DNA of 64,000 nt from Myxococcota bacterium (GTDB lineage Bacteria > Myxococcota_A > Polyangia > Nannocystales > Nannocystaceae): the NCBI GenBank assembly GCA_039028615.1, contig JBCCHT010000008.1:160001-224000 (forward strand). The letters are read 5' to 3'. Under the pieces are notes generated by a model. It saw only the letters and a list, made by a program, of their open reading frames with translations. It had not been told where the DNA came from and searched no databases. A program made the position numbers and the translations under genes. Shown here piece after piece: positions 16,403 to 49,560 of the stretch. Numbering within the stretch: position 1 is the stretch's first letter; each line of letters starts with the position of its first letter.

Positions 16403-16642
16403 ATGGACATCAACACCCGACGTACCCGGCACATCGCGCTCATCAACCTCTGGAAAACAATCCGGCGCAAGGCCAGCCCGCAGATGTTCCACGCGGAGCT
16501 CAACCTCTTGCCCGATGAGGATCGTCGCGTCGTACAGGCCGTGGTGTTGGGCCAAACCGACGCGTTCGATGACAGCCAAGAACTCCAGGTGCTGAGGGAG
16601 GCAACCAACACGCCTTCCGCCGGCATGGCCATCACGGGATAG
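16403..16642 (+). CDS. Small hypothetical protein
   Basis: 79 aa with an AGGAAG RBS and natural-looking composition; convergent with the next gene. Confidence 0.5.
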   Translation: MDINTRRTRHIALINLWKTIRRKASPQMFHAELNLLPDEDRRVVQAVVLGQTDAFDDSQELQVLREATNTPSAGMAITG

Positions 16643-16674
16643 GGTCGCACCTTCTCGTGGAGGTGGGCCTTTAC

Positions 16675-18483: not shown

Positions 18484-18557
18484 CGTGATGACTTTAGCAC
18501 TGAGACCATTGCTCAAAGCATGGACCCTTTAGTGCCAATGAGTGCGACCACGAATCT

Positions 18558-25517: not shown

Positions 25518-25521
25518 GACG

Positions 25522-26334: not shown

Positions 26335-26337
26335 ATC

Positions 26338-33555: not shown

Positions 33556-34334
33556 GATTGAACGTCCGTCGCAGCCGCAGAGGCGCCGACCGGCTGGGTC
33601 GCGCGGTGATGGACCAGGGCCAGGAAGCGGCCGGGATCTCGATAGCGAACGCCGAGACGCTCGGCGATGCGCGGGGCGAGCAGCTCGGCCAGCTCTTCCT
33701 CGCGGGCCGGGGCCAGCGTGTTGCGACGGGGCACGAAGCGCTCGAGGGCCCGCCGCTCGTCGGCCTGCAGCGGCACCCGGTGGGGCAGCGTGGCCAGCTC
33801 GTCGGCGGTGGGCGGCACCTCGTCGGCCTGTCCTCGCAGCAGTCGGGCTCGATTTTCGTGGATGACCACCGTGCCCGCGACCATGTCTCCGAGCCGCCGA
33901 AAGCGAGGATCGATGCTGGAGCACACGATGCCCACGCAGCCACCCACGGGCAGCCAGTCCGCCGCCCGCAGCAGATTGCGCAGCACCGAGTCGACAAAGC
34001 CCATGGGGAAGCCGCCCTCTTTGACGGTACGCAGGGCCAGCACGCGCTTGCCCGGGGTCTGGCCGCTCCACATGCTCTCGAGCAACACGTAGTAGCCCCA
34101 CTCGACCACGAAGATCACGATGAGGGCCATGCCCGTGGACTGCTCGTTGAACGCGCTGCTGCCCTCGGCCATCGAGATGAGCACGAGCAGCATGAGCACG
34201 ATGAAGCCGCGAATCAGCCCGTCGATGGCATAGGCGAGACCGCGCCGCCACGGCCCCGCCAGCCGCAGCCGCAGCGTGACGTGCTCGGGGGTCTCGATGC
34301 TGACGGTGGTGTCGAGGGGCTCACGCATGGACAA
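33552..34334 (-). CDS. RDD family protein
   Basis: TPE.V.L...LAG...R..AY.ID, GQTPGK and RLGDMVAGT motifs. Confidence 0.88.
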   Translation of the reverse strand: MSMREPLDTTVSIETPEHVTLRLRLAGPWRRGLAYAIDGLIRGFIVLMLLVLISMAEGSSAFNEQSTGMALIVIFVVEWGYYVLLESMWSGQTPGKRVLALRTVKEGGFPMGFVDSVLRNLLRAADWLPVGGCVGIVCSSIDPRFRRLGDMVAGTVVIHENRARLLRGQADEVPPTADELATLPHRVPLQADERRALERFVPRRNTLAPAREEELAELLAPRIAERLGVRYRDPGRFLALVHHRATQPVGASAAATDVQS

Positions 34335-34346
34335 CCGGCGGGCCCG

Positions 34347-34874
34347 CTACTCGGTGGGCGACCAACCGGCCATCACGACCTTGGTGTTGGCCATGCGGTC
34401 GTGCAAGCAGCGTTGCTCGGAGCCGAAGATCCACAGCACGTTGACCAACGAGATGAGCGGACCCACCGCGGGAATGACCGCCAACAACGAAAAGGGCAGG
34501 TAGCGCAGGGCGAACAGGTGGCCGGCCGAGGGCGGCTCGTTGCTGTTGACGTCGACCATCCGCAGCCCCAACGCCCGCTTGCCCACCGTCTGGCCCGACT
34601 GAAGGAAGTACCACTGCACCGCTGCGAACACGACCAGGCCGATGAGCGAGGTGATGATCGTATTGATGAAGTCCGGCTCCGGGTTGTCGAAGTCCAGCAA
34701 CCCCAAGGCGATGAGGATGGCGAAGTTGGGGATCGTCAGCGCGAAGCCATCGATGATGGCCGCGCCCAAGCGAGAACCACGGCTGGCCAGCGGCGGCTCG
34801 AGGCCATCGCCATGAAAGGACGGCTGGTTCGTTTGATCTTCGACCGGAGCTTGGTAGGGGTTGATATCGTTCAT
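34347..34874 (-). CDS. RDD family protein
   Basis: NPY.AP, LASRGSRLGAAIID, GQTVGK and RCLHDRMANTKV motifs. Confidence 0.88.
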   Translation of the reverse strand: MNDINPYQAPVEDQTNQPSFHGDGLEPPLASRGSRLGAAIIDGFALTIPNFAILIALGLLDFDNPEPDFINTIITSLIGLVVFAAVQWYFLQSGQTVGKRALGLRMVDVNSNEPPSAGHLFALRYLPFSLLAVIPAVGPLISLVNVLWIFGSEQRCLHDRMANTKVVMAGWSPTE

Positions 34875-35027
34875 GGTGGGGCTGCCCGTCTACTAGTGCA
34901 CCACCCCCTTCATTTCAGACAAAGCACTCCGAGTTTTCCAAAATGGGACATTCGTTCGGGTCACGTCGGCGGCCCGGCGCCCACCGGACGGCCAGCCGCA
35001 ACGGCTAAAACGGCCCTGGACGCCCCT

Positions 35028-36266
35028 CTACTGCTTCTGCACGGCGATTGCCGAGGCCCCGCCCAGCACGTGCAGGAACTGGTTGAAGTGGCCGCGCTCG
35101 GAAACGCGAGCCGCCTTGCGCAGCACCTCCTGCACCGATCGCGGCTCCCGACGCTGCAGCCATCGCAGCAGCCACCGCGCCCCACGAGTGTCGGGCAGCT
35201 CGAACGAGTACCCATTGGCCGCGACGATGAGCGCGTCACCGGCCTCCGCTCGCTCGAGCCACAGGTCGGGCTGCGGCGCGATGACGTCGGCGGCGGCGAG
35301 CTTTCGAAACGCCCAGGGTGCCGGCAGCACTCCGCCCGCGGTCCGAACCCGCAGCCAGTGATGCAGCTGATCGCGATGCAACGCACCCGATGCCAAGACC
35401 TCTGCGAGCCGATCGAGCGGTGCGGTGAGCTCGGGCGGCGCCTGCTGTCCGTCGGCATCGGCGGGCAAGGCCATGGTCGGCGGCACGCCCATCCCCGAGA
35501 CGGTGCGCTCGAGATGCGTCGCCAAGGTTCGATGCATGATGCCGATGCTGAACGACGCCCCCAGCCCCCCGTCGGCCGTCGCCACATGCCAGGCGTTCCG
35601 CGGCCAGTAGGCGAGATCGCGGGTGCCCAGGGTGAGCGTCTCGGCGTCGTGCTGGTACTCGGTGGCCTCGGCCGCGGCGCGGGTCCGCAGGGTGGGCACG
35701 CCGGGCCGCGGAAAGTAGTCGTCGTCCCACACCAGCATCTGCTTGTGGCCCTTGACCGCGAACGCCATGGTGTCGGTGAAGTCGCGGTGGATCCCGCCCG
35801 GCGTAGCCCCGTAGTTGCCCAAGAACAGCGCGGTGTCGGTGGTGCACACGGGTAAGCCGACGCGCCCGTAAAACCCCCGCAAGAAGGTTCGGACCCGGCG
35901 CCACGCCCCGACGTGATGCCGGGTCAGATCGTTGAAGATGACACCGTGCGGCCGCCCCTCGCTGAGTCGATCGAGCCGCCGCGCGTAGCCGGCCAGGCTG
36001 CGATCGGAGGCGCGGGGCATGAACAGCCCCAGCTCCTTACCCGACTCGAGCTGCCGATCGTCGACATAAAAGCGCGCCCGAAACTGGTCGGGCCGCTTGG
36101 CGCCCTGCACCAGCGCATCGAAGGCCTCCTTGGCCGTCAGCATCGGGCGCGTCAGCGGAGTTCGCATGACGCCGGGGCGCTGCGACCAGAGCCGATCGAC
36201 GAAGTCCGACCAGAAGGGCTCGAGGGCTAGCGATTCCACGCGTTCTTTTCTTCGGGAGGTGGCCAT
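35028..36266 (-). CDS. JmjC/cupin Fe(II)/2OG oxygenase (RiPP cluster)
   Basis: F.GNY..TP.GIHRD, G.K and YWP..AWHVA motifs. Start at MATSRR, or at the GTG at 36239. Confidence 0.8.
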   Translation of the reverse strand: MATSRRKERVESLALEPFWSDFVDRLWSQRPGVMRTPLTRPMLTAKEAFDALVQGAKRPDQFRARFYVDDRQLESGKELGLFMPRASDRSLAGYARRLDRLSEGRPHGVIFNDLTRHHVGAWRRVRTFLRGFYGRVGLPVCTTDTALFLGNYGATPGGIHRDFTDTMAFAVKGHKQMLVWDDDYFPRPGVPTLRTRAAAEATEYQHDAETLTLGTRDLAYWPRNAWHVATADGGLGASFSIGIMHRTLATHLERTVSGMGVPPTMALPADADGQQAPPELTAPLDRLAEVLASGALHRDQLHHWLRVRTAGGVLPAPWAFRKLAAADVIAPQPDLWLERAEAGDALIVAANGYSFELPDTRGARWLLRWLQRREPRSVQEVLRKAARVSERGHFNQFLHVLGGASAIAVQKQ

Positions 36267-37327
36267 GTTCGTCCGTGGGCGGCGTAGAACTCTTCGTACT
36301 CGCGGTATCGGCCCATGCCGGCCACCGCCTCGAAGGCGGACAGGCGCGTGCAGCCGTAGGGGGCCTGCACCGCGTCGGGACACAGGGTGGCGAACGCCTC
36401 GCGGAGCAGACCTTCGAGCTTCCAGTAGCGCTTGGCGGGTGTCTCGTAGCTCCGGTAAAAGGCCCGGCGAATGCGGTGGAACTGCTTTTCGGCCGCCTCG
36501 TCGATGAGCGACTCGTGGGCGAAGCGTGAGCCCACCGCCTGGCCGTAGGGGCCCAAGTGCAGGTTGTCGCCGAGAAACTTCGCGTAGCGATTGCGACCGA
36601 AGCGAACGTTCACCGACAAGCTCGTGGTGACGTACTCGATGTGGTGCCACCAGGCGGGCGGGATGTAGACCGCCTCGCCCGGCTCGAGGAAGAAATCGTA
36701 GCCGCCGACGAAGCGAACGAACTCGGCCCGGTCGCGCTCGCTGAAGTCACCGAACTGGATGAAGCTCTGGTTCTTCATCGGCAGCATGCGCAGCGACTGC
36801 GAGGGCGGCACCAGCAGGATGCGCTTGCGACCGAAGACCTGGTAGAGGATGACGTGGCGTAGATCGCCGTCGTAGTGCATGTGGGCGTAGTTGCCCTCGC
36901 CCGCGCCGAAGATCATCGACAGGACCTCGTCCTCGCCCGGCGGCATGCGAGCGTACGCGGGCAGCGTGAACAGGTCGCGCAGCATGCCCGGCGTGTCGAG
37001 CTCGCTGCACAGCAGATCGGTGGCCGGGTTTCGCTCGAGGCGTCGCAAGTAGGCGCCGAGCTTCGATGGTTTGGGGGCGACCGGGGGCGGCGGCGGCGTG
37101 CCCCGCTGGTAGGCCCTAAACATCCCGCGCGAGGCCTCGGGCTTGATCTGCACGGGCAGCGACGCGAGCCTGCGCTCGGCCTTCGCCCGCGTGTCGATGC
37201 GGCGGATCGGGTCGCCCGTGTAGAGGTTGGTCAAGATCACGGGGCGCTGCGTCGCCAGGTAGCGGCGTCGCATCTGGCCCGGGCTCGGCGCCTCGATCCG
37301 GCGAATGCGTCGGTTGGCGTTCATCAT
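36227..37327 (-). CDS. JmjC (cupin_8, FIH-like) Fe(II)/2OG oxygenase (RiPP cluster)
   Basis: RPVIL, HMHYD, QVFGRKR and LEPGEAVYIP..WWHH motifs; ATG 1 nt after the rSAM stop. Confidence 0.85.
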   Translation of the reverse strand: MMNANRRIRRIEAPSPGQMRRRYLATQRPVILTNLYTGDPIRRIDTRAKAERRLASLPVQIKPEASRGMFRAYQRGTPPPPPVAPKPSKLGAYLRRLERNPATDLLCSELDTPGMLRDLFTLPAYARMPPGEDEVLSMIFGAGEGNYAHMHYDGDLRHVILYQVFGRKRILLVPPSQSLRMLPMKNQSFIQFGDFSERDRAEFVRFVGGYDFFLEPGEAVYIPPAWWHHIEYVTTSLSVNVRFGRNRYAKFLGDNLHLGPYGQAVGSRFAHESLIDEAAEKQFHRIRRAFYRSYETPAKRYWKLEGLLREAFATLCPDAVQAPYGCTRLSAFEAVAGMGRYREYEEFYAAHGRTWPPPEEKNAWNR

Positions 37328-37328
37328 C

Positions 37329-39062
37329 TCAAGCGGGGATCGCCTCGGCGCCGAGCTGCACGTGCCATGGCTGGGCCGCACGCCTTCCTGGGACCTCGAG
37401 GTCGTGCTCGAAGCGGAAGCGGTGCTCGGGGCGACTTTCGTCGGCCACGTGCGCGTGTAGGCTCGTGAGCGTGTGCCAGTGCTCGGGCTGGTCTCGCAGG
37501 CTCTCGACCACGCGGTACTCGATGGCGTCGCGCACCACGGCGGCCGCCTCGGGATCGGGCGCCCGCGCCTGGGCCCAAGCCGACAGCGCCCGACCGAAGC
37601 GCGCCACGTTCGTCATCAGGGCATGGTCGTCGAGGGCGTCGAAGAACGAGGCGGTGAAGATCTCGGTGAAGAACGCCCCGCCCGGCCGCACCTGGTACGT
37701 ATCGAAGAGCCGAGAGATCACGGGATACATCTGCTCGATGAGCATGGAGACCAGGTGGGCGCGCAGCATGTCGGCCGGGCTGAACTGCGGCGTCTGGCGG
37801 GTCACATGCGGGCTCACGTCGTCGTAGCGAAGGCCGAGCTCCTTCGCGGTGGCCCGGAACTCGGTGCCGGGCAAGACCTGCAGCGGCTGCAGAGCCATGG
37901 GCGCGCCGGGCTGGACGCCCTGGATGTAGTCGATGCCCTCGAGAAAGTCCTGCAGGGTGTCGCCGGGCAGCCCGTAGATGAGGTCCCAGCGCAGGTTGGG
38001 GTTCTCGCCCAGCTTACGGATGTTGCCTTCGAGCCGCTGCAGGCTAGTGGGGCGACCGATGGTCTTGAGGGTCTGGCGGTTGACGCTCTGCAGCCCCACG
38101 CCGAAGTGCAGGCGCCCCTGGCGGAACAGCTCGCGGCACTGGTCGGCCACCAGGTCGGGCAACATGTCGAGCTTGATCTCCGTATGAAGGTTTCCGTCGG
38201 TGAACTCTTCGAGGAAGAACCGGAAGATCTCGAAGGCTCGCTCCTTCCGCACGGTGAGGATCCCATCGGCAAAGTAGACCGACTTGATCCCCAGATCGCG
38301 CACATGAGCGAGTTCCTGCAACACTCGATCGATGTCGAAGTATCGCATTCTTCCCCCGTCGTTCTTGGGGTACTGGCAAAAGGCACAATTGACCGGACAA
38401 CCGCGAGAGGTCTCGACGATCACCGAAGGCCGCCCCTCGCGATGAAAGCGAGTCAGCAGCTCTTGTACGGTTGCCCCCAAGATCGGTGACGGGATTTCGT
38501 CGAGATTCTCGATATAGTCGCGGCGCTTGCCGCGGACGATCTCGTCCCCATTCCGAAAGGCGATGAAAGGGACACCGTGAAACCCAGCCTCGCCCGCGAG
38601 GGTCAGGCCGGTCGACGGCGCGAGGCCGAGCCACGCGAGCAAGAAGCGGCGAAACGCCTGCTCGCCTTCGCCATCGATCACGTAGTCGAGCTGCGAGTGC
38701 TGCGACAGCAGGCTCTCGCTCTCCCCGTAGGTATCGGGGCCGCCGGCCACGATGGTGAGCTCCGGGCGTAGCTTCTTGCAGACCGCCGCCACCGCCAGCA
38801 AGAAGCCCGCGTTCCAGCAGTAGAGCGATAGGCCCACGATCGTGGGCGATTGCGCGATGATCTGCCGAGCCGTGTCGATGCACGCGCGCGCGTGCGCCTG
38901 GCGATCGCGGTGGGTGACGGCGAGCACCGGGTGATGGATGAACTCGCAGCGCTCGGCCACGCGCTCGTCGAGGCACGCGTAGTTGCGCAGCAACCGGAAG
39001 GGGGTCGACGAAGCCTCGAAGCTCGGCCCCTGGCTCACGAACACGATGCGTACTGGGTCCAT
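37329..39062 (-). CDS. B12-binding radical SAM enzyme (class B methyltransferase-like)
   Basis: Cobalamin-domain motifs VGLSLYCWN, AGGP and GEGE; ETSRGCPVNCAFC (CxxxCxxC); DLIYGLPG. Confidence 0.9.
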   Translation of the reverse strand: MDPVRIVFVSQGPSFEASSTPFRLLRNYACLDERVAERCEFIHHPVLAVTHRDRQAHARACIDTARQIIAQSPTIVGLSLYCWNAGFLLAVAAVCKKLRPELTIVAGGPDTYGESESLLSQHSQLDYVIDGEGEQAFRRFLLAWLGLAPSTGLTLAGEAGFHGVPFIAFRNGDEIVRGKRRDYIENLDEIPSPILGATVQELLTRFHREGRPSVIVETSRGCPVNCAFCQYPKNDGGRMRYFDIDRVLQELAHVRDLGIKSVYFADGILTVRKERAFEIFRFFLEEFTDGNLHTEIKLDMLPDLVADQCRELFRQGRLHFGVGLQSVNRQTLKTIGRPTSLQRLEGNIRKLGENPNLRWDLIYGLPGDTLQDFLEGIDYIQGVQPGAPMALQPLQVLPGTEFRATAKELGLRYDDVSPHVTRQTPQFSPADMLRAHLVSMLIEQMYPVISRLFDTYQVRPGGAFFTEIFTASFFDALDDHALMTNVARFGRALSAWAQARAPDPEAAAVVRDAIEYRVVESLRDQPEHWHTLTSLHAHVADESRPEHRFRFEHDLEVPGRRAAQPWHVQLGAEAIPA

Positions 39063-39093
39063 CCGCGGCACTTCAGAGCACAAAGAGAAGGGT

Positions 39094-39115
39094 GCCAGCC
39101 CCCCGGGGGGCTGGC
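39094..39115. repeat. Perfect 22-bp palindrome upstream of rSAM gene
   Basis: GCCAGCCCCCCGGGGGGCTGGC is self-complementary. Confidence 0.7.
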
Positions 39116-39252
39116 CGAGCCATGATCTTCACGCTGGGCGCAAGCGACCATGGCGACATCGCGAAACCGCGAGGTCGATGCATGCGGTGGCAATTGCCTT
39201 CAACCCTGGAGGCTGGGCGGCGCCCCACCACGTTGCGTTGATGTAGACGTCA

Positions 39253-39280
39253 CACTCGGGGTGTCGGCCCTCCCCGAATG
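39253..39280 (-). terminator. Stem-loop just 3' of precursor gene (attenuator or mRNA stabiliser)
   Basis: Minus-strand CATTCGGGG-N10-CCCCGAGTG, 6 nt after the stop; no U-tract. Confidence 0.5.
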
Positions 39281-39286
39281 ACTCGC

Positions 39287-39457
39287 TCAGGCGTTCGTGA
39301 AACGGGTGGTAAACCCACCGATCAGCGTCAGCTCGAAGCTGCAGCGGTAGTAGCCGCCGGTCACCTCGAGCAACTGATCCTCGTCGAGCTCCTCGGTCTG
39401 CTGAGTCACGACCTTCTTCTTGACGACGAGCTTCTTCTGTTTGTTCTTCTTTTCCAT
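39287..39457 (-). CDS. RiPP precursor peptide with double-glycine leader (56 aa)
   Basis: Hand translation: MEKKNKQKKLVVKKKVVTQQTEELDEDQLLEVTGG-YYRCSFELTLIGGFTTRFTNA*. AGGA RBS, EL.E.QL..V.GG motif and S/T-rich core; lies between lanB and the rSAM gene. Confidence 0.9.
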   Translation of the reverse strand: MEKKNKQKKLVVKKKVVTQQTEELDEDQLLEVTGGYYRCSFELTLIGGFTTRFTNA

Positions 39458-39659
39458 CTGTTGTCCTACTGTATTTCCCGAGCTCGGTCTTCGAGCCCGA
39501 GCTGTGGAACTACATTAAAGCAGTCCCGTCGTGTCCTTGTTATGGACAGTTTGGAATGTACTTAACAGGAAAACCTGGTTCAAGTAGAAATTCGTGGAAT
39601 CGGACACATCCGGGTGTTAGTCTTCCCGCCTACCCCACGTTATTCTCGAAGTACTCGTA

Positions 39660-42600
39660 ATGACAGAGTCTTTCGTCTTCCGACGGCCAATTCTCCCGCT
39701 GAGTGCCCTCATCGACGCCGGAGCTTGTCAGTCGTCAACTAAGCAAAACGAGCACCTTTCCGAGCGTATCGACAGTGAGTGGCACTATCTGCGTAATTTG
39801 GTGACGGCACCATTGCTGCAACAAGCGCTGCACATTGCCAGCCCCAATGCGCTCCAAGCCCTCGGTGAAGAGTCGAGCGACCGGAAGCAACAGAAGAAGA
39901 TCGAACGCACACTTGCGCGCTATCTGTCGCGTATGACGTGGCGATGCGAACCCTTTGGGCTATTCGCAGGCATCGGCACTGGCACAATTAGCGAACGCAC
40001 CAATCTACACCCGGGCAAAGATCTCCGCCTTCGCCGCCATACCCGGCTCGACACCGGGCTGGTCGCCGATGTCGCCGCGCGCCTGCAGTCCCACCCGGAT
40101 GTGCTCCGAACCCTACGCTACTTCCCGAATTCGAGCGTATTTCGGGTCGCCGAGGGCGTGCGACACCTCGCCGCGCGCCCGACTTCGCGCGGGCGCACCT
40201 TCGATCTCGTCGCGCTCGAGTCTTCTGCGCCCATCGTGGCTGCGCTGGACTTCTGCCGACGAGGTGTGCCCTTTGCCGCCGTGGCAGACTATGTGGCCAC
40301 CGAGTTCGAGGCCGAGCACGAAGAAGCGATCGAGTTCGTGGAATCGCTCATCGAGAGTCAGACTCTGGTGAGTGAACTCGAGATCACCCTGACCGGAATC
40401 GAGCCCACACTGGCGCTGTGCGCGGCGCTGACCGAGCACGAAATCCCGGTGGCCGCCGCCGTCTGCGAGCACCTTCGCGCGATTCATGATGCGATCGAGT
40501 CCATCGATGGCACTGCGGTCGAACGCATCACGCTCGATGCTCAGCGCACGCTCGAGCACCGTGTCCGTGAGCTGGCCGGGCCCGACTACTCGGGGCCGCT
40601 GCTTCAGGTCGATCTGCACTTCGAAGGCGCCACGCCCACGCTGGGGCGCGACGTCGTGCGACAGCTTCGACGAGTCGCCGAAGTCCTGCCGTGGTTCGGT
40701 ACGCGCCAGCGCGGGGCCGAGGCGTTCGCGACTCGCTTCATCGAGCGCTACGGCTACGCCGAGGTGCCCCTGTTGGAAGCCGCGGACGAAGACTTCGGCA
40801 TCGGGGTCGCCACGTCGCAGCGCTCCTTGTCTCCGCTGCTCGGCGGCATCGTGTTTCCCATCGCCCTGGCCGTGGACCAGCCCAGCACCTGGGCCCCGCG
40901 TCACGAGTTCCTGCTCGAGCGCCTCAGCGGGGCGCTCCGCCGCGGCGAACGGGAGATCACCATCACCGCCGAAGACGTCGAGGCGCTGAGCGAGGTCGAG
41001 GACGCTCCCCTGCCGCTGCCGTCGGCGCTGTCGGTGCGGGCCACCGTAGTGGGGTCTGCGTCGCAGGTCGAGTCGGGTAAGGCGCGGGTGCTCGTGCGCG
41101 GCGTCGAGGGGCCCTCGGGAGCGCGGTTGTTGGGCCGCTTCGCCCACGGGGACCCCAAGCTCGCCGACGAGGTTCGCGAGCATCTGCGGGCCGAAGAACG
41201 ACTCGATCCCGAGGCCATCTTCGCCGAGATCGTGCACCTGCCCGAGGGACGCCAGGGCAACGTGTTGCTCCGCCCCGTGCTGCGCGAGCACGAGATCCCC
41301 TACATGGCCCGCAGCGGAGCGCCGCTCGACAAGCAGATCCCGCTCGACGATCTCATGGTGTCCGTCTCGGGCAACTCCGTGGTGCTGCGCTCGCGTCGGC
41401 TCGGCAAGCGCATCGTGCCGCGGTTGTCGACGGCCCACAACTACGACAACCTGCGGGCGCTTCCGCTGTATCGCTTGCTGGCCGCGATCCAAGACCAAGG
41501 CTGCGAACCCCGGGTCAAGTTCGAGTGGGGCCCGCTCGAGAACTCGGAATTCCTGCCGCGAGTGGTGTACGAGCGGGCGATCCTCAAGCCGATGACGTGG
41601 CGAGTCTCGGGTCATCGGCTCTCGCAGTGGGCCGCGCTCGAGGGGCAGGCCCTGGCCGATCACACCGCCGCGCTTCGCAAGGAGCTGGGGCTTCCTCGCT
41701 GGGTCATCTTGGCCTCGGATGTCGACGATCCGCTCGCGGTCGATCTCGAAAGCCCGATCATGCGCGAGTCGTTGGCTCAGATCCTTCGGCGGCGCACCTG
41801 GGCTCGCTTCACCGAGATGCTGCCCGGCCCCGACGAGCTGTGCTCCGATGGCCATGTGCACGAAGTCGTCGTGCCCTTGGTGCGCGACACTCCGCCCCGC
41901 GAGGTGCCTCGGGTCGAGCCGGTCGAGTCGAAGCTCCGCTACTACCCGCCGGGCAGCGAGTGGCTCTACGCGCGGCTCGTCGCCGGCCGCGGGTTGCTCG
42001 ACGACGTGCTGCTCGAGTTTCTGCCCGTGGTCTCGCAGGTGTTGGGCCAGCAGCAGGCCGACCGCTGGTTCTTCGTGCGCTACAACGACCCCTCGTGGCA
42101 CCTACGGCTGCGCCTGCACGGCGAGCCCACCCGGCTGTGGAACGAGGCCCGGCCCCGCCTCGACGAGGTCGCCGCGCGGCTCGTGGCCAACGGCACGCTC
42201 AGCGACTTCGAGTACTGCACCTACGACCGCGAGCTCGAGCGCTACGGCGGCGACGCCACCACGGAGATCTGCGAGCACATCTTCAACGTCGACAGCACCG
42301 CCATGGCGCGCATCGTGGCGCACGTGAACGACAGCGGGCAGGCCGACCTTCGTTGGCACGCGGGGCTCGTGGCCACCGATCGCATGCTCGACGACCTCGG
42401 CTTCGACCGGGCGGGCAAGATCGCGGTGCTCCAGCCGCTGCGGGACCTCATGGCCAGGGAGTTCCAGCTCGAAGGCGCGCGGGGCCGCTCGCTGAGCAAG
42501 AAGTACCGGAAGCTGCGCGGCACCGTCGAAGCCCTCGTCCAAGACCGCAACCACTCCGCCGCGCTGGCGCCGATCCACCAGATCCTCGACCAGCGCTCTG

Positions 42601-42797
42601 CTGCCCTGGTTCCCCTGGGCCAGCACCTGCGCCGAGCCGAGAGCACGCAGCCGCTCGATCGAGTCGGCTGCGCGCTGCTGCACATGCAGCTCAACCGCCT
42701 CTTCGACAGCTTCCAGCGCGAGCACGAGATGGTGCTCTACGACTTCCTGTACCGCCACCATCATTCGCAGTCCAAGCGCAGGACGCCCGGTCGATGA
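39660..42797 (+). CDS. lanB: Full-length LanB-type dehydratase (glutamylation + elimination domains)
   Basis: YLSRM..R..PFGLFAG, QVDL, GRF, PRLSTAHN and FLPRV. Elimination domain WFFVRY.D..HLRLR, Y.RELERYGG and HM..NR. 1045 aa. Confidence 0.92.
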   Translation: MTESFVFRRPILPLSALIDAGACQSSTKQNEHLSERIDSEWHYLRNLVTAPLLQQALHIASPNALQALGEESSDRKQQKKIERTLARYLSRMTWRCEPFGLFAGIGTGTISERTNLHPGKDLRLRRHTRLDTGLVADVAARLQSHPDVLRTLRYFPNSSVFRVAEGVRHLAARPTSRGRTFDLVALESSAPIVAALDFCRRGVPFAAVADYVATEFEAEHEEAIEFVESLIESQTLVSELEITLTGIEPTLALCAALTEHEIPVAAAVCEHLRAIHDAIESIDGTAVERITLDAQRTLEHRVRELAGPDYSGPLLQVDLHFEGATPTLGRDVVRQLRRVAEVLPWFGTRQRGAEAFATRFIERYGYAEVPLLEAADEDFGIGVATSQRSLSPLLGGIVFPIALAVDQPSTWAPRHEFLLERLSGALRRGEREITITAEDVEALSEVEDAPLPLPSALSVRATVVGSASQVESGKARVLVRGVEGPSGARLLGRFAHGDPKLADEVREHLRAEERLDPEAIFAEIVHLPEGRQGNVLLRPVLREHEIPYMARSGAPLDKQIPLDDLMVSVSGNSVVLRSRRLGKRIVPRLSTAHNYDNLRALPLYRLLAAIQDQGCEPRVKFEWGPLENSEFLPRVVYERAILKPMTWRVSGHRLSQWAALEGQALADHTAALRKELGLPRWVILASDVDDPLAVDLESPIMRESLAQILRRRTWARFTEMLPGPDELCSDGHVHEVVVPLVRDTPPREVPRVEPVESKLRYYPPGSEWLYARLVAGRGLLDDVLLEFLPVVSQVLGQQQADRWFFVRYNDPSWHLRLRLHGEPTRLWNEARPRLDEVAARLVANGTLSDFEYCTYDRELERYGGDATTEICEHIFNVDSTAMARIVAHVNDSGQADLRWHAGLVATDRMLDDLGFDRAGKIAVLQPLRDLMAREFQLEGARGRSLSKKYRKLRGTVEALVQDRNHSAALAPIHQILDQRSAALVPLGQHLRRAESTQPLDRVGCALLHMQLNRLFDSFQREHEMVLYDFLYRHHHSQSKRRTPGR

Positions 42798-43291
42798 GCG
42801 CCGAAGCGATCGTCGTGGGCCTGCTCGGGCTGTGGGTCGTGGCCGCGGCCCTCGTGCAGGTGCCGTGGGGCTCGCGGTGGGTGCCCAACGTGGTCATGAC
42901 GCTCTTTCTGCCGGTCTGGACTCTGTTCACCGACCCGATGATCGCGTTCGACTACGGCCTGTACTGGCAATCGCGGGGCAAGGGCGCGGACGAAGACGAG
43001 TGGGAGCCAGTAGAGATCGCCGCCCCACGCGGCCTGCTGAGCGCGCTGTGGAACCCCCGCAAGCGCATGGCGGCGCGCTTCCGTGCGCTGGTGGCCCTGG
43101 TCACCGCGCTGCGCATGCAACGAAGGACCGACGCGATCCCCGACTCGGTCGCCTACCGGATCCTCGAAGAGCACGTTCGCAGCCAACGCAGCAACCGCGA
43201 TCCCTTCGTGTTCGCCATCGTCATGACCGACCCGCGCGACGACGAGGCCGAGCCCCACTTTCTCTACGTCTCCGAGCGGTGTGAATCGTGA
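42794..43291 (+). CDS. Small membrane-anchored partner of HTTM protein (SdpA-like)
   Basis: ATGA overlap with lanB; N-terminal TM helix; LP.W.LF..P...DY and LWNP.KR motifs. Confidence 0.65.
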   Translation: MSAEAIVVGLLGLWVVAAALVQVPWGSRWVPNVVMTLFLPVWTLFTDPMIAFDYGLYWQSRGKGADEDEWEPVEIAAPRGLLSALWNPRKRMAARFRALVALVTALRMQRRTDAIPDSVAYRILEEHVRSQRSNRDPFVFAIVMTDPRDDEAEPHFLYVSERCES

Positions 43292-44124
43292 TCGCTCCGA
43301 TCGACAGCACCACGGCGCTGCGCCTGGTCGAGGTGGTCCTGGGCGCGAACCTGCTGCTCGCCTCGCTCGAGTACCTCGCGCAGCATGCCGACTTTCGCCC
43401 CGGCGGCCTGGCCTACGGCGGTGCGACCTTCCGCGGCGGCGGAGGCCTGCGGCGGGTCAACCGGGCCGTCGCCTCCGCCCCCTTGTTTCCGTTGCTCAGC
43501 GCGGTGCGGGGACTGGGCGCCATCGCGTTGATGGCCGGGGTCGTGCACGGCTCCGCCCTCCCCGTGCTGATGGTCGGCCTGTGTGCGCTGACCGTGGCCA
43601 TGAACATGAGCTTCGTGTTCGGCACGGATGCCTCCGATCAGATCAGCCTGCTCGTGCTCTTCGGCCTGACGGTGGGCGCCCCCTTCCGCGACAGCGAGTC
43701 CATTCGGCTGGCCACGCTGTGGTTCATCGCGCTGCACTCGGCCATCTCGTACATGAGCGCGGGGTGGTCCAAGCTGCGGATCCGCGAGTGGCGAGACGGT
43801 CGCTTCGTTCGCAGCGTCGCCACGTGCGAGCTGTACGGCCATCCGTGGACCCAGCGGGCGCTGTCCGGCCAGGCGATGGCCGTGCTCGCATCGTGGGCGA
43901 CCATGGGGTTCGAGGTCCTGTTCTTCCTCGCGATCGTGGGCGGTCCCGTGCTCGCCCCGGCCGTGCTCGTGGTGGGGTTCCTCTTCCACCTGAGCAACGC
44001 GGTGTTCATGGGCCTCAACCGCTTCGTCACCGCGTTCCTGGCCACCTACCCCGCACTGTGGTTTTGCGGGCAACGCCCCGAGTCGTTCCTCGATCTCGCC
44101 GCCGTCTTCACCACGGGAAGCTAG
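43288..44124 (+). CDS. HTTM-domain (SdpB-like) integral membrane protein
   Basis: Multiple TM helices; G.D.SDQ, Y..AG.SKL...W.DG, FE and FH..NA..MGLN.F motifs; GTGA overlap. Confidence 0.75.
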   Translation: MIAPIDSTTALRLVEVVLGANLLLASLEYLAQHADFRPGGLAYGGATFRGGGGLRRVNRAVASAPLFPLLSAVRGLGAIALMAGVVHGSALPVLMVGLCALTVAMNMSFVFGTDASDQISLLVLFGLTVGAPFRDSESIRLATLWFIALHSAISYMSAGWSKLRIREWRDGRFVRSVATCELYGHPWTQRALSGQAMAVLASWATMGFEVLFFLAIVGGPVLAPAVLVVGFLFHLSNAVFMGLNRFVTAFLATYPALWFCGQRPESFLDLAAVFTTGS

Positions 44125-44126
44125 CC

Positions 44127-45350
44127 ATGCCCGATACCGCCGCCAACTCTGCCCCCATGCCCGGGCTCGGTGCCCTGCTGGGCATGGACGACCTCGCGCC
44201 GTTTTTTCGCGAGCACTGGCCCGACCGTCACTGCCTCACCCACGGCTCGGTCGAGCGGGTCGGCGAGCTGGGCCACGTGCCCGAGCTGGCCAGCGTCGAT
44301 ACCCTGCTCGAGGCCGTGGACGACGAGATCCTGGTCATGCCCAACCATCTGCCGGGTGAAGGCTACGGCGGGGGTGTGCCGGTCAAATCGTCGGCCGCCC
44401 GGGCGCTGTTCGCCTCGGGGCTGACGCTGTGGATCAAGCGACTCGACAAGTCGATCCCGTTCTTTGCGCGCTTGCGCTCCCGCTTTGCCGCCGACCTGGG
44501 CGTGGCCGAGTCCGACGTGCACCCGCAGCTGTGGGTCTCCCCCAAGGGCAAGGCCACACCGCAGCACTTCGATGCCGCCGAGGTGTTCGTGTTCCAGCTG
44601 CGGGGGCACAAGCGCTGGCGCGTCGCGCCCAACGACGAGGTCCGCTACCCCATGATCGACTCGCAGCTCAGTCGCATGCAGCTGCGTCGCGCCGACACGC
44701 AGCTCGACCTGCAGCCCGGCTCGTTTCTCTACCTCCCGCGCGGTCACTGGCACCACACCGAGGCGCTGTCCGAGTCCTGGTCGATCACCCTGTTCGTCAA
44801 GGCGCCGAGCTGGCTGCGAGTGCTGCAAGAGCACCTGTTCCGCGAGCTGGGTAAAGACGAACGGTGGCGCAAGCCGGTCGCGGTGGCCTCGCCCGTGGAG
44901 GGCTATCGGCGCGAGTCGGCCGCAGAACTCGGCACACTGCTGGGCGAGCTGGTGCACGAGTTCGCACCGCAGCACGCGGATGCGATCTTCGAGGCGGCCC
45001 GCCGCGGGGTGACCGGCCGAAGCCGAGCCGCCCGCGAGCGCTCGCGGACACGGCCGTATCGACGCATCGAAGGCAGCACCGTCGAAGTCGAGCGCGGCGG
45101 CTCGATGGTGGTGGTGCGGGTGAGCTCTACCGAAGACACGATCACCGAGCTGGAGCTGTCGGCCGAGCTCGAGTCCATCGTGCGGTGGATCATCGAGCAC
45201 GAGGGCGCCTTCAGCCCGGTCGATCTCGACCCGTTGCTGCACGAGATCGCGGGCGACGCCTTCTCGCGAGCGCTGTACACCAACCAGTACCTGCCCACGC
45301 TCTTGCACGAGCTGTATGATGCCGGGCTGCTCGGTAGCGACGAAGAATGA
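44127..45350 (+). CDS. JmjC/cupin oxygenase (YcfD/ROXA-like; RiPP cluster)
   Basis: FFREHWP, HFD..EVFVFQL.G.KRW and YLPRGHWH motifs. Real start is MPDTAAN. Confidence 0.85.
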   Translation: MPDTAANSAPMPGLGALLGMDDLAPFFREHWPDRHCLTHGSVERVGELGHVPELASVDTLLEAVDDEILVMPNHLPGEGYGGGVPVKSSAARALFASGLTLWIKRLDKSIPFFARLRSRFAADLGVAESDVHPQLWVSPKGKATPQHFDAAEVFVFQLRGHKRWRVAPNDEVRYPMIDSQLSRMQLRRADTQLDLQPGSFLYLPRGHWHHTEALSESWSITLFVKAPSWLRVLQEHLFRELGKDERWRKPVAVASPVEGYRRESAAELGTLLGELVHEFAPQHADAIFEAARRGVTGRSRAARERSRTRPYRRIEGSTVEVERGGSMVVVRVSSTEDTITELELSAELESIVRWIIEHEGAFSPVDLDPLLHEIAGDAFSRALYTNQYLPTLLHELYDAGLLGSDEE

Positions 45351-46513
45351 GCGGCTCCGCTCCGCTCGGCCTCTCCGCCCTGTTCGCCCCGCTCTCCGAC
45401 CGCGACTTCCTCGAGCGGCACTGGCCGCACATCGGGTTGGTGCAGCACGGCGATCCCGAGCCCTGGACCTCGCTCACCGCCGAGCCTCGACTGGCCAGCC
45501 CTCTCGCGCTCGCGCAGGTGCATGCCGGGCCCATCCAGACGCTGGGCACCACCGACGAGGGCGGTCACGCCCAGCGGGAGGTCGCACGGGAGCAGGTGCC
45601 GACGCTGGTGGAGCAGGGCAAGAGCCTGAAGTTCGACGGTGTCGATCGAACCATCGAGGAGGTCGACCGCATGTGCGAGGCGTTGGCCAGCGACCTCGGC
45701 CTCGAGCGCTCGACCTGCTACTGCCAGGCGTTCTTGTCGGGCAAGGGTGAGCGCGTCGCCCTGCACTTCGACTCGGTCGAGGTCTTCGTGCTGCAGCTGC
45801 GCGGGCGCAAACGCTGGACACATGCACGCAACGACGAGGTTCGCTTTCCCCTCAACCCCTGGGCGCCAGGGGTCCAGAGCAGCCCCGACCACGGCATCGT
45901 GGCGCCCGATGGCTTCGATCCCGACGTCGACACGGAGTCCGCCGTGTTGCGGCCGGGCTCCGCGATGTTCGTGCCCCGCGGGTGGTGGCATGGCACCGAG
46001 GCCCTCGACGACGACTGCGTCTCGCTTTCGTTCATGGTGCACACACCGACGTGGATCGAGGTTGGGTTGGCCGCCCTGCGCAAGCGCTTGATGGCCTCTG
46101 AGGCCTGGCGGCGGCCGATCGCGCACGATCTATCGAAGGCGTCGGGGTTGCTCGAGTTCGTGAACGAGGCACAGGGCATGGTCGACCGCGCACAGCAGCT
46201 GGCGGGGCAGCTGGCGGCGATGGACCTTGCACCCAGGCGACCACGGCAGCTCCACGCGGACATGCAGCTTCAGCTGCGACCGGACACGACTCTCGAGACA
46301 TTCGTCGAAGATGGGCGGGTCGTCGCCTGCATCACCCGCCCGGGCGTGAAGCGACGAATCGCCGTCGGTCCCAAAGGCGCCGCGCTGTGTCGCTTCATCG
46401 TCGAGCAGCCGGGGCCGTTTTCGGTGAGCCGTGCTCGCGATGCGGTCTCCGAGCTCGACGCCGACCGCATCCTGCTCGCGCTCATCCGCCTGGGCGCGCT
46501 TCAGCCCTCGTAG
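45347..46513 (+). CDS. JmjC/cupin oxygenase (YcfD/ROXA-like; RiPP cluster)
   Basis: FLERHWP, HFDSVEVFVLQL.G.KRW and FVPRGWWH motifs; ATGA overlap. Confidence 0.85.
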   Translation: MSGSAPLGLSALFAPLSDRDFLERHWPHIGLVQHGDPEPWTSLTAEPRLASPLALAQVHAGPIQTLGTTDEGGHAQREVAREQVPTLVEQGKSLKFDGVDRTIEEVDRMCEALASDLGLERSTCYCQAFLSGKGERVALHFDSVEVFVLQLRGRKRWTHARNDEVRFPLNPWAPGVQSSPDHGIVAPDGFDPDVDTESAVLRPGSAMFVPRGWWHGTEALDDDCVSLSFMVHTPTWIEVGLAALRKRLMASEAWRRPIAHDLSKASGLLEFVNEAQGMVDRAQQLAGQLAAMDLAPRRPRQLHADMQLQLRPDTTLETFVEDGRVVACITRPGVKRRIAVGPKGAALCRFIVEQPGPFSVSRARDAVSELDADRILLALIRLGALQPS

Positions 46514-46514
46514 C

Positions 46515-48506
46515 TCACTTGCTCGCGGGCACCAAGCACACGCAGCGCCCACGCCAAAGCTCGATCATCTCCTGCACCAACGCCTCGAACTTCGCCCCCT
46601 GGGTCGGCAGCCCGAGCTCGTCCACCAACGCCGCGATCGTCTTTTGTCCATCGGCGGCACTCAGCACCGCAAACGCCTCCACGCTGACCTGAGCGGTGGG
46701 CGGCTTGAAGTCGGGCGAGGTCAACGTCCCCACCCGATGCACGTCGCCGCGCTTGACCAGCTCTTGGTAGACCGTCAGCGACGGCACCAGCTGCGCATGG
46801 TCCCGCGTGCCGACTTCACGCTTCTCGATGATGTGCTCGCCGATCACCAACGCGTCGAGCTCGGTGGTCAAAAACGCCACCATCGCGTCATGGGCCGTCT
46901 GCACGATCGGCTCGACGGCGTTGTTGAAGGAGGTATTGAGCACGACCGGCATCCCCGAGCGCTCACCGAACGCCTCGAGCAACCCGTGAAAACGCGGGTC
47001 GACCTGCTCGCGCACCACCTGTACCCGAGCCGTGCCGTCGACATGGGTCACCGCGCCGAGCGAGGGCCGATGAGGCTCCCGCACGGGCGCGACGAAGCCC
47101 ATGAACGACAGGTCGCTGTCGTCCTCGGGGATCTCGAAGTAGGTCCGCGCCGCCGCCTCGGTGACCGCGGGCGCAAAGGGCCGATAGCCCTCGCGCAGCT
47201 TGACCGCCCGATTCACCCGATCCCGCGTCCCCGCCTCGCGCGGGTCGGCCAGGATGCTGCGGTGCCCCAGCGCTCGCGGCCCGAACTCGGAGCGCCCCTG
47301 AACCCAGCCGACGATCTTGCCCTGGTGCAGCAGCGCCGCCGTGTCGGCACAGATCTGCTTCGAGCGCCGCGCGTGCACCCACCCCGCCCAGCGGTCGATC
47401 TCCGCGGATGGATCGCCGACATCGGGCCCCAGGTACGCATGCTTCAGCCGACGCGGCGCCGCGGCGCCGTGCCCGAGCCGACGACACACCTCCAACGCTG
47501 CACCGAGGGCTCCGCCTGCGTCGTGCGAGGCTGGCTGCACGAAAATCCCGTCGAACTCGCCCGAGGCCAACAACCGACCATTGAACGTAGAGTTGTGGGC
47601 GACACCCCCGGCCAAGCACAAGTGACGCTCGCCCGTCGCTTCGCGAAAATGATCGACGATGTGCATGGCGAGGGTCTCGAGGGTGGCTTGAATGGCCGCC
47701 GCGATATTGCGATGTGCCTCGGTGAAGGCCTCGCCCCGATGACGCACATCGGCGAGCACCCCAGCCTTCTGCAGCCGCGTGACCCAGGCATAAAGCGGCG
47801 CGACTTCGTAGGCGCCCTCGGGCTTCAGCTCGTACAGCGACGCGAAGGCCTCGGCGTGCACGGAGGGATCGCCATAGGGTGCCAGCCCCATGACCTTGTA
47901 CTCGTCGAAGCGCCGATAGCCGAGCAGGCAGATGAGGTCGCGATAGAGGTCGCCAAGCGACTGCGCCCCAGTATAGGTCTGCAGGCGCTCGAGCTCGCCG
48001 CCGCCGTGGGCCCGAAACACCATGCCCGAGTTGCCGTCGCCACCACCATCGATGACGACCACCAGCGCGCGCTCGAAGCCGCTGCAGGCGTAGGTGCTAC
48101 GCGCGTGGGCGATGTGGTGATTGACGAAGTGCAGGCGCGCGGACACGTCGACGCCGAACGCATCGAGGAAGGGCTGGGCGGCATAGGTGCGGGCACCGAG
48201 TTCGTCGGCCCCGTTGGCGCGACCGACCATCTCTTGGATGGACTCGAAGTCCCACGTGGGCTTGGACCAGTTGTTGGCGACGGCATCGACCTCGTCGAGC
48301 CCCACGCCCGCGATGTCGAGCACGGCCCGGATGGCACGCTCGGGGAAGTAGTTGCCGTGCTTGACCCGGGTGAGGCGCTCGTCCTCGACCGCGGCGACGA
48401 CATCACCATCGCGCACGACCACCGCGGTGGCGTCGTGAAAGCCATATCCGAGGCGGTTGTCTTGGCCGAGCCGGCGACGACCACCATGAAATCCAAGCAC
48501 GATCAT
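46515..48506 (-). CDS. O-carbamoyltransferase (NodU/CmcH/TobZ family)
   Basis: HD.....DG......[59 protein letters not shown] and NTSFN motifs. Confidence 0.93.
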
Positions 48507-48528
48507 GAAGGTCGAAGTCTACGTCACT

Positions 48529-49020
48529 TCACCCTCGTGGCCACACGCAAATGGCAGTCTCACAGTCGAGGCAATACTCATTGAATTCGCAAATCATGCC
48601 ATCAGGACAAGCGTGCTCACCATCGCACGAAAGCACGCATCCATTCTCCCACCATCCCGAGTGTGGCCGACCAAAGACCGCACAATCGGGCACGGCGTTG
48701 CCCGTGTCTGCGGCCGGGCAGTGGCTCGGCTCCGAGCACACCGCTCCGCACTGGCCGAGGGCCTCGAAACACTCGGGCGTGGGCTTGTAGCACTCGGCGG
48801 GGCCATCATTGGTGCACGGGCCATAGGGTGTATCCGCGGGGACGACTCCGTCGAAGTCGACGGCGCCGCTTCCGTCGAGTCGTTCACCCGAATCCGACGA
48901 AGCATCACTGTCGGAGTCATGGGAGTCGGTGTCTTCACCGAGGTCGACGGCGACCGGGTCATCGACGGCACAAGCGACCGCACAAAGGAACAATGAACTG
49001 GAGAGCAACCAACGAGACAT
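48529..49020 (-). CDS. Cys-rich lipoprotein
   Basis: MSRWLLSSSLFLCAVAC lipobox, acidic linker and PYGPC...C..DCP.GM.C..C.W-like module. Confidence 0.7.
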   Translation of the reverse strand: MSRWLLSSSLFLCAVACAVDDPVAVDLGEDTDSHDSDSDASSDSGERLDGSGAVDFDGVVPADTPYGPCTNDGPAECYKPTPECFEALGQCGAVCSEPSHCPAADTGNAVPDCAVFGRPHSGWWENGCVLSCDGEHACPDGMICEFNEYCLDCETAICVWPRG

Positions 49021-49560
49021 GACAAACCTCTGGGGGCAGGAGGTGTGGTGAATTGCAGAACGACCTCGCGCGCCGATGAAGGGGGCATCGACGACGGGGA
49101 CCCGCGACGCGCTGCGACCGGGGGCGGGTGCAGACGACGACCGCGATGGCACGATGGCCATGGGCTCGAGCGTGGGGGACGACGCGCCCGGGCACCGCAG
49201 ATGGGCCCGAGCTTGCGCATGATGTGCACGCGGCCGAAGGGCCGCGGGCGGCGGAAGGGTCAGGCCGCGAGCGTCAGACCCGGGCCGGAACCGAAATTGC
49301 CTGAGGAACGGTCAATTCATGCGCGAAAACAGGGATTTGGGTTTTGGTGGGGGACTTGATGGGCACAATGGCCGTGGATCACGACCGAATTCGCTTCTTT
49401 GCTTCCAAATCTAACAAACAACGTTTCAATTCAGCTGGGCTTTCACCCTCTAGTCGATCAGGGGGATCCACCTAATGGCACCCGGGGAGGCCCGGGATTC
49501 ATCGCGCGGGCGCTCCCTCTACCGCGCGGGGGTGAATGCAGCCGAAGCTATGGGGGGACA

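Follow-up and report, generated by a model that had tools for sequence, protein, structure and literature searches.

A LanB gene cluster with JmjC oxygenases, a cobalamin radical-SAM enzyme, a carbamoyltransferase and a carboxylase-like membrane pair: a candidate pathway to a heavily decorated ribosomal peptide in the Myxococcota

We describe a candidate gene cluster for a peptide that is made by the ribosome and modified after translation (RiPP) at positions 35028-48506 of a 64,000-nucleotide stretch of DNA, referred to here as the window, which covers positions 160,001 to 224,000 of contig JBCCHT010000008.1 (assembly GCA_039028615.1) from a member of the Nannocystaceae, a Myxococcota bacterium whose genome of 12.3 Mb and ~68% G+C comes from a marine metagenome run. 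In the locus, a 202-bp spacer separates two closely coupled runs of genes that point away from each other. The leftward run encodes a 56-residue precursor peptide, a B12-binding radical S-adenosylmethionine (radical-SAM) enzyme and two JmjC-type oxygenases (JmjC2 and JmjC1), and the rightward run encodes a LanB dehydratase, a 165-residue membrane protein, a 278-residue HTTM-type membrane protein and two further oxygenases (JmjC3 and JmjC4), on which a carbamoyltransferase gene converges. We propose, with a probability of about 0.7, that the whole region is one functional RiPP gene cluster serving one pathway, and its product should be a small, heavily decorated ribosomal peptide. What we observe directly is the gene content and its coupling, the conserved catalytic residues, the conservation on a second contig and the recurrence of parts of the locus in related clusters.

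The coupling can be read from the sequence itself. The lanB gene and the gene of the 165-residue protein overlap by ATGA, the latter and the HTTM gene by GTGA, a gap of 2 nt separates the HTTM gene from JmjC3, JmjC3 and JmjC4 again overlap by ATGA, and the stops of JmjC4 and of the convergent carbamoyltransferase gene are separated by 1 nt. The divergent spacer (39458-39659) is AT-rich, with 48.5% G+C against 68.0% for the window, in which the genes show the usual high third-position G+C, and no sigma-70-type consensus was found in it. These junctions and the spacer composition bear out the tight divergent arrangement, the AT-rich spacer and the 1-nt convergent stop described in a first-pass annotation made from the letters alone, and every gene named there is indeed present. 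Between the precursor and radical-SAM genes lies a G+C-rich hairpin followed by a T-rich run (39087-39108, − strand), one of four sites found in a terminator-like scan where 1.2 were expected; its stem is visible in the fold, and it is a possible attenuator. Gene models were built from frame plots and start scans, and public gene callers concur with them for nine of the 12 proteins looked up. The interval 33000-50500 is covered without a single difference by a 41,552-base contig that an independent assembler produced; this argues against a misassembly, although the contig probably stems from the source run and thus does not represent an independent sample. In same-genus genomes, the flanking genes sit on different contigs, as seen in an empty-site comparison.

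The precursor gene (39287-39457, − strand, with AGGA 7 nt before its ATG) is an open reading frame (ORF) for the peptide MEKKNKQKKLVVKKKVVTQQTEELDEDQLLEVTGGYYRCSFELTLIGGFTTRFTNA, which has a Lys-rich leader of residues 1-35 with Gly-Gly at 34-35 and a predicted 21-residue core (36-56) containing five Ser/Thr (S40, T44, T50, T51 and T54), one Cys (C39), one Glu (E42), two Arg and no Lys. Models of double-glycine leaders match it weakly (PF10439, E 0.037), and leaders of the same kind are found in peptides beside LanB genes in related genomes. An orthologue seen on six contigs is identical at 55 of 56 positions, only the last residue differing, and it keeps the single core Glu, whereas LanB and the carbamoyltransferase of the same orthologous set are 89% and 90% identical, respectively. 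Since the precursor is more conserved than the enzymes, we regard it as a real, selected gene, and the RiPP reading of the first-pass annotation holds. That the cluster is silent or decaying, or that the small ORF is not a true precursor, would fit a metagenome assembly and a leader that curated models match weakly, but with all frames open, all catalytic motifs intact and the peptide better conserved than its enzymes, this is very improbable.

The lanB gene (39660-42797, + strand) encodes a full-length class I lanthipeptide-type dehydratase holding both the glutamylation and the elimination domains that define such enzymes (PF04738, 2.4e-149; PF14028, 2.5e-55). It aligns along its length with the solved structures of MibB (2.8e-54), 9g04 (8.9e-49) and NisB (7.3e-28), and its start at 39660 is backed by N-terminal residues conserved in the 89%-identical orthologue. 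Of the LanC cyclase, YcaO protein and pyridine synthase that the first-pass annotation did not recognize in the window, the first two are absent from the whole contig that carries it (C8), and the third from the window genes scanned, but LanC and YcaO genes do occur on other contigs. A whole-genome search with PF05147 places LanC-type genes on contigs C14 and C1 only, with none on C8 or among the window genes scanned; on C1, the gene has another LanB match at a distance of ~1.4 kb, and on C14 it forms part of a 1072-residue LanM-like frame. YcaO matches (PF02624) in the genome are confined to C50, C17, C63 and C1, so that C8 lacks the YcaO of a thiopeptide cluster, and the sole Lant_dehydr_C match among the window genes scanned is the C-terminus of LanB itself, with no separate pyridine-forming cyclase. 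C39 peptidases are likewise placed by a whole-genome search on other contigs, which means that LanC and C39 are both present in the genome and both missing from C8, and the genes scanned in the rest of the window include no transporter or protease obviously tied to the cluster. LanB without LanC occurs in other RiPP classes.

The four oxygenases are of the Fe(II)/2-oxoglutarate-dependent JmjC type and split into two subfamilies. JmjC1 (35028-36239, − strand, 403 residues from GTG 36239) matches PF08007 at 4.5e-5 with 23.4 bits, barely above the cut-off of 22; public gene calls contain both this form and one of 412 residues from ATG 36266, and its subfamily includes JmjC proteins of two related clusters discussed below, L019 and L025. 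JmjC2 (36227-37324, − strand, 365 residues) is a Cupin_8/FIH-JMJD5-like oxygenase (PF13621, 1.5e-16) with JMJD5 and FIH as its best solved matches (~1e-10). JmjC3 (44127-45350, + strand, 407 residues; PF08007, 2.1e-18) has YxbC of Bacillus subtilis as its nearest solved protein (5.8e-20), and JmjC4 (45347-46513, + strand, 388 residues) matches PF08007 at 1.8e-16. All 12 JmjC proteins aligned, namely the four of the cluster, two other JmjC/cupin proteins of the window and six from related clusters, retain the HxD...H metal site and a Lys without exception. There is precedent for such enzymes in peptide pathways: the accessible text of one preprint describes MppG as a 2-oxoglutarate hydroxylase that has a RiPP recognition element (RRE) domain and acts in a lanthipeptide cluster (10.64898/2026.10.04.756588), and JmjC-RRE proteins are reported in RiPP-like contexts, as far as the available text goes. 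At 24753-27510 (+ strand), 7.5 kb to the left of the cluster and separated from it by an eight-gene MoxR/DUF58/RDD run of the opposite strand, a trio of tailoring-like genes encodes proteins of the Cupin_8, sulfotransferase and JmjC_2 types, the last with 31% identity to JmjC3. The trio may act on the peptide of the cluster or on a different one; sulfotransferases are also found in the LanB clusters L022 and L025, and the sulfotransferase of the trio has no matches in five same-genus genomes.

The radical-SAM enzyme (37329-39062, − strand, 577 residues from ATG 39062) matches PF04055 at 9.2e-21 and PF02310 at 4.9e-9, with the CxxxCxxC motif visible in its translation. Its best solved matches are the C-methylases TokK (1.7e-24) and CysS (3.1e-18), and among curated models it matches NF033712 of the KedN5 family (7.5e-39) and TIGR03975 (8.1e-26), both far below their cut-offs. 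By homology it is probably a class B (cobalamin) C-methyltransferase. A Pfam scan of the C-terminal parts of this enzyme, the four JmjC proteins and the carbamoyltransferase gave no match.

The carbamoyltransferase (46515-48506, − strand, 663 residues; PF16861, 1.8e-65; PF02543, 2.3e-40) is of the NovN/GdmN type and matches the solved proteins NovN at 1.3e-150 over residues 1-661 and GdmN at 8.7e-147 over the full length. GdmN and NovN also match the model of its C-terminal domain (predicted local distance difference test, pLDDT, 87.7) at template-modelling (TM) scores of 0.76-0.80 and are the best hits of a fold search with this domain, in which PqqD and TbiB1 are weak. In five same-genus genomes, the closest carbamoyltransferase is 46% identical over its full length (other paralogues 36-43%) and belongs to a run of leftward genes that converges with the LanB-rSAM-JmjC-JmjC run of L025, a topology also found in the window. 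It is chiefly because of this shared convergent position that we count the carbamoyltransferase as part of the pathway. A NodU-like carbamoyltransferase, StdF, acts on a RiPP in vitro according to the accessible part of its description (PMC13174530), but, as that part has it, StdF comes as a fusion with a peptidase and its target is a Lys amine; the core of the window precursor contains no Lys, and the enzyme encoded here is a NovN/GdmN-type O-carbamoyltransferase. On contig C17 of the same genome (G000:C17), two YcaO genes (16438-19248 and 31798-33519) lie ~12 kb from a carbamoyltransferase paralogue in a 1287-residue frame with one TAG, an arrangement that recalls the YcaO and peptidase-carbamoyltransferase of the std cluster. 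Upstream of the window carbamoyltransferase gene, 1.1 kb (48507-49593) show no clear coding signal; an ORF within it (48529-49161, − strand) reads like a Cys-rich lipoprotein and has a third-position G+C of only 0.67-0.69.

Among 61 related genomes, LanB matches are found in nine (the present one included), often several per genome, and as they reach only 33-44% identity there is no orthologous cluster in this set; pattern scans for close LanB relatives in genome and metagenome contig collections found none. A large protein collection contains a LanB orthologue of 89% identity on a 16,178-bp metagenome contig, a carbamoyltransferase orthologue of 90% identity on a contig of 16,178 bp, and orthologues of JmjC2, the 165-residue protein and JmjC3 in the same 90% clusters, each on a contig of 16,178 bp; the precursor orthologue identical at 55 of 56 positions is likewise recorded on a contig of this length. 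We infer that these six orthologues share a single contig, on which the cluster extends from JmjC2 to the carbamoyltransferase, a placement based on the equal recorded length and not on DNA.

More distant LanB loci of the genus share parts of the enzyme set. In each of the loci L019, L023 and L025, LanB is accompanied by two or three JmjC proteins, and L025 has a radical-SAM enzyme as well. L019 (G005:C141) is a class I type cluster with LanC, JmjC oxygenases and arginase-family genes. L025 together with L072 (G005:C132) has LanC, JmjC oxygenases, arginase-family genes, a radical-SAM enzyme and a carbamoyltransferase, and in addition an Asp/Asn-hydroxylase-sulfotransferase fusion, two more sulfotransferases, a DUF6445 oxygenase and an aldo-keto reductase. 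These three loci resemble the window in joining LanB to several JmjC_2/Cupin_8 oxygenases and similar leaders, and in L025 to a radical-SAM enzyme and a convergent carbamoyltransferase, but they differ from it in their arginase-family genes, in one or two LanC genes (L019 and L025) and sulfotransferases (L025), in having no HTTM pair and in protein identities to the window of only 25-46%. A different kind of relative is L027 (G001:C1370:1-12747), in which a precursor, a 156-residue protein, an HTTM protein, LanB, TauD and another 2-oxoglutarate-Fe(II) oxygenase form one run, accompanied by a methyltransferase and a divergent TfuA gene. Like the window, it has precursor, small membrane protein, HTTM protein and LanB in a single run, 2-oxoglutarate oxygenases and no LanC on its 12.7-kb contig. 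Unlike the window, it has TauD/2OG-FeII enzymes instead of JmjC proteins, TfuA nearby, a Pro-rich core without Cys or Glu, and an HTTM protein of another subtype (PF05090, 2.4e-13) that is not found with the window HTTM protein at 1e-5. Since the HTTM protein of L027 and its partner are of another subtype, it looks like such pairs were recruited repeatedly rather than inherited as one block. Both LanB clusters with an HTTM pair, the present one and L027, lack LanC, and no LanC-bearing cluster has the pair; two such cases amount to a hint rather than a rule.

LanC itself is present in six of the ten other LanB paralogue loci from relatives (L019, L021, L022, L024, L025 and L026), and the JmjC-bearing L019 and L025 are among them. 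This bears on the possibility that the window holds an ordinary class I lanthipeptide cluster in which a cyclase acting in trans, or a spontaneous reaction, closes one (methyl)lanthionine ring from C39, for which the core offers one Cys and five Ser/Thr and the genome LanC-type genes on C14 and C1. Against it, the C1 and C14 genes have their own partners and none is on C8, and L027, which is LanC-less as well, has a Cys-free core. We consider such a cluster unlikely, although the LanC genes elsewhere in the genome together with the core Cys make a single thioether ring possible and weaken the view that the product has no ring.

The 165-residue membrane protein is encoded directly downstream of lanB (42794-43291, + strand) in a frame that differs from the listed ORF 42832-43284 and is matched by public gene callers. 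It belongs to no curated family, with no match in Pfam or in NCBIfam (the latter at E<=1). The description of this protein as SdpA-like did not survive: it has no match to the SdpA model TIGR04034, which in the genome finds only a true SdpA on contig C72 (95 bits, curated cut-off 53.1), and hhalign of the partner family against true SdpA gives a probability of 0.3%. The equation of the partner family with SdpA is rejected, having no hhalign support. A structural lead points to DUF5819 clusters (TM 0.53-0.65), and hhalign against a DUF5819 protein gives a probability of 24.5%, although one DUF5819 member was already part of the profile used. The family numbers 1417 representatives at E<=0.001, and P40, W42, F45 and W70 of the window protein are common to small genes upstream of HTTM genes elsewhere; the partner gene precedes an HTTM gene in 14 of 16 loci, and its motif is found upstream of HTTM genes in 43 of 79 further loci. 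Two such pairs occur elsewhere in the same genome, each beside a secreted or Cys-rich protein, namely the true SdpA/SdpB-type pair on C72 (G000:C72:892-2525) and a DUF5819/HTTM pair on C21 (G000:C21:119725-121325). In both, the small gene overlaps the HTTM gene and the gene order is that of the window.

The 278-residue protein (43288-44124, + strand) is an HTTM-type membrane protein and a relative of vitamin K-dependent gamma-carboxylase (GGCX), of SdpB and, putatively, of LinG. The HTTM label comes from its relatives and from a profile, the protein having no Pfam match of its own: PF05090 is matched by all ten relatives scanned (four of them above the cut-off), a profile of 17 HTTM proteins matches human GGCX chains at 1.5e-7, and protein-atlas features of the 278-residue protein also point to HTTM clusters. 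To the SdpB model TIGR04033 it matches at 1e-8 over residues 138-250 only, with 35.2 bits against a cut-off of 178.4. Its relatives are present in 25 of 251 genomes of the class, and those that can be named are mostly from Myxococcota and Pseudomonadota. As a lead only, its structure resembles the N-terminal part of actinobacterial alpha/beta hydrolases of 600-643 residues (TM 0.82-0.86).

The predicted complex of the two proteins reaches a median score of 0.87 over three runs, while the best of three controls scores 0.00. The same mark is reached by 116 of 157 solved complexes and by two of 215 mismatched pairs, counts that apply here only roughly because the complex was modelled from our own alignments. 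At least 90% of contacts are common to the runs, the partner has a pLDDT of at least 80, and the predicted interface places motif residues 40-46 of the partner on HTTM residues 153-168, including Y155, K162 and W168. K162, W168 and H234 are invariant across the 17 HTTM proteins, as is Y155, and K162 is aligned with the second Lys in the VKKL motif of GGCX, a residue that we take to be K218, the proposed catalytic base. In the models, then, the 165-residue and HTTM proteins resemble a vitamin K-dependent carboxylase relative that has been split in two: the pair has the HTTM core with its Lys/Trp region aligned and a one-helix partner predicted to lie over that site, but it is divided between two proteins and is far shorter than GGCX. 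A DUF5819-HTTM pair has been modelled as resembling whole GGCX, an enzyme guided by a propeptide, with the small protein at the substrate/propeptide clamp, as described in the accessible text of a recent preprint (10.64898/2026.08.19.745780). Searches of the literature, with subscription journals outside their scope, found no function for a bacterial HTTM pair.

This likeness raises the possibility that the pair is a leader-guided, menaquinol-dependent enzyme that uses O2 and gamma-carboxylates E42 or carries out another strong-base reaction. The invariant K162, W168 and H234, the position of K162 on the GGCX Lys and the partner motif predicted to pack on this site are consistent with such an enzyme, as is the small protein in the place of the propeptide-binding GGCX clamp in the accessible text of that preprint (10.64898/2026.08.19.745780). 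The single core Glu, conserved in the orthologue, would be a suitable target. However, the L027 core has no Glu, and it argues, together with the other HTTM subtype of that locus, against one shared Glu-directed chemistry; furthermore, mature SDP of B. subtilis reportedly carries a disulfide only, although SdpAB are needed for it. The substrate channel in the preprint model is blocked, with another opening seen, as far as its accessible text shows (10.64898/2026.08.19.745780). On balance, we rate this specific chemistry as tentative and quite unlikely.

Several observations weigh against the proposal that the whole region serves one pathway, and most of them favor a juxtaposition in which a LanB/JmjC/rSAM core has come to lie beside an unrelated HTTM pair, which might serve immunity or general membrane biology, and an unrelated carbamoyltransferase, neither of them touching the peptide. 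The pair family is widespread, has varied neighbors and is normally outside RiPP contexts: no LanB, JmjC, radical-SAM or carbamoyltransferase gene is within 8 kb of HTTM-family genes in any of 80 loci, and LanB is beside HTTM in none of 16 cases from class relatives. The link between HTTM and LanB is rare, adjacency across the class having been checked among the matches listed, to which 351 further HTTM matches do not belong. The pair, normally a module on its own, might thus be a chance insertion at this place. HTTM matches are found in 138 of 251 genomes of the class and number 7-16 per genome in this genus. The carbamoyltransferase gene is read from the opposite strand, has an upstream region of its own and three further paralogues in the genome, and its product resembles small-molecule enzymes, shares its RRE-like C-terminal domain with GdmN and NovN, which act on small molecules, and itself gives no pointer to a peptide substrate. 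The 16,178-bp contig represents a close relative (~90% identity) in which synteny is expected anyway, and its six orthologues are united by recorded length. No RNA runs carrying the stretch are listed, and the sole DNA run with it is probably the source, two other runs of that study having yielded no more than short pieces. In opposition to a juxtaposition, the pair lies between lanB and JmjC3, with 4-nt overlaps at the lanB/165-residue and 165-residue/HTTM junctions, L027 likewise places a small-protein/HTTM pair between its precursor and LanB genes, and the closest same-genus carbamoyltransferase is again convergent on a LanB/rSAM/JmjC operon. Hence we regard a mere juxtaposition as decidedly improbable and prefer a single pathway.

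Among characterized systems, class I lanthipeptide clusters such as those of nisin (NisB/NisC) and microbisporicin (MibB) are similar to the window in their full LanB, leader and Ser/Thr core, but the window has no LanC in the cluster or contig, no nearby C39 transporter, one core Cys and much heavier tailoring. Linaridins are likewise dehydrated, mostly linear RiPPs that depend on an essential membrane protein; the window differs in having no LinE-type hydrolase or recognizable LinL, another leader type and its own LanB for dehydration, and Pfam scans found no alpha/beta hydrolase domain in 35028-48506. In the accessible parts of the respective reports, LinG of the linaridin cluster is called an HTTM-domain protein (PMC9927463), LinG with LinE, or a LinH fusion, is needed for linaridin formation, and hybrid clusters of LanB, LanC and LinE/G/L are noted bioinformatically in three Streptomyces (10.1101/2020.07.09.196543). 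The atlas lead to the N-terminal part of alpha/beta hydrolases would fit this LinG/LinE-LinH architecture, as a lead only. With SdpABC of B. subtilis the window shares a small membrane protein gene overlapping an HTTM/SdpB-type gene and, as proposed here, a role in peptide maturation, but the 165-residue protein fails the SdpA model, the HTTM protein reaches 35 bits against 178 for SdpB, and there is no SdpC-like protein.

The first-pass annotation knew of no characterized cluster with this combination of enzymes, and none was found in the literature searched, which left preprint supplements and subscription journals outside its scope. The enzyme set is nevertheless less isolated than that annotation held because JmjC and LanB, in one case with a radical-SAM enzyme and a carbamoyltransferase, recur in the genus together with LanC. 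LanB next to a LinG-type membrane protein has already been noted in three Streptomyces, in the text accessible to us (10.1101/2020.07.09.196543). Individually, LanB without LanC, JmjC-RRE proteins, a RiPP carbamoyltransferase and LinG are each precedents for a single element of the cluster.

For the single pathway that we propose, we infer every chemical step, the order of the steps and the target residues from the genes described above. The precursor would be bound through leader residues 1-35, and in the cytoplasm LanB would glutamylate some of S40, T44, T50, T51 and T54 and eliminate to dehydroalanine/dehydrobutyrine. The four JmjC-type Fe(II)/2-oxoglutarate oxygenases would hydroxylate side chains, with Arg, Phe/Tyr, Asn and Leu positions as candidates, the TokK/CysS-like cobalamin radical-SAM enzyme would C-methylate an unactivated carbon, and the NovN/GdmN-type enzyme would carbamoylate a hydroxyl, the simplest candidate being one that a JmjC enzyme has introduced. 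As no dedicated cyclase is encoded, the product would be mainly linear with at most one thioether, from C39. The 165-residue/HTTM membrane complex, as a split vitamin K-dependent carboxylase-like assembly, would act late on the peptide at the membrane in a maturation step comparable to that of SdpAB on SdpC, either as a quinol-driven modification or in processing/export; one reason for giving it such a role is that no transporter or protease accounts for leader removal and export. Removal of the Gly-Gly leader may fall to a C39 transporter whose gene lies elsewhere in the genome, or to the membrane step.

Two further features lie elsewhere in the window. The gene at 57438-61274 (− strand) encodes a 1278-residue protein in which a polyprenyl synthetase domain is fused to a part that resembles FAD amine oxidases and phytoene desaturases, and a stretch of ~60% G+C at 16000-18300, within the 68% window, contains a 541-residue ORF without any Pfam family.

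The most interesting part of the cluster is the carboxylase-like pair. In a single locus, the cluster pairs a short and defined candidate substrate with a bacterial relative of vitamin K-dependent carboxylase, and as HTTM proteins are very common in bacteria, the question of their function is thereby made testable by co-expression and mass spectrometry. The locus also points to a LanB-based route to dehydrated peptides that needs no cyclase, it suggests that JmjC oxygenases are used throughout the genus to decorate such peptides, and its product would possibly be the first O-carbamoylated RiPP. If the pair were indeed a menaquinol-dependent enzyme, a first substrate and reaction would be assigned to the large bacterial HTTM family, and this would provide a first handle on the role of LinG in linaridins.

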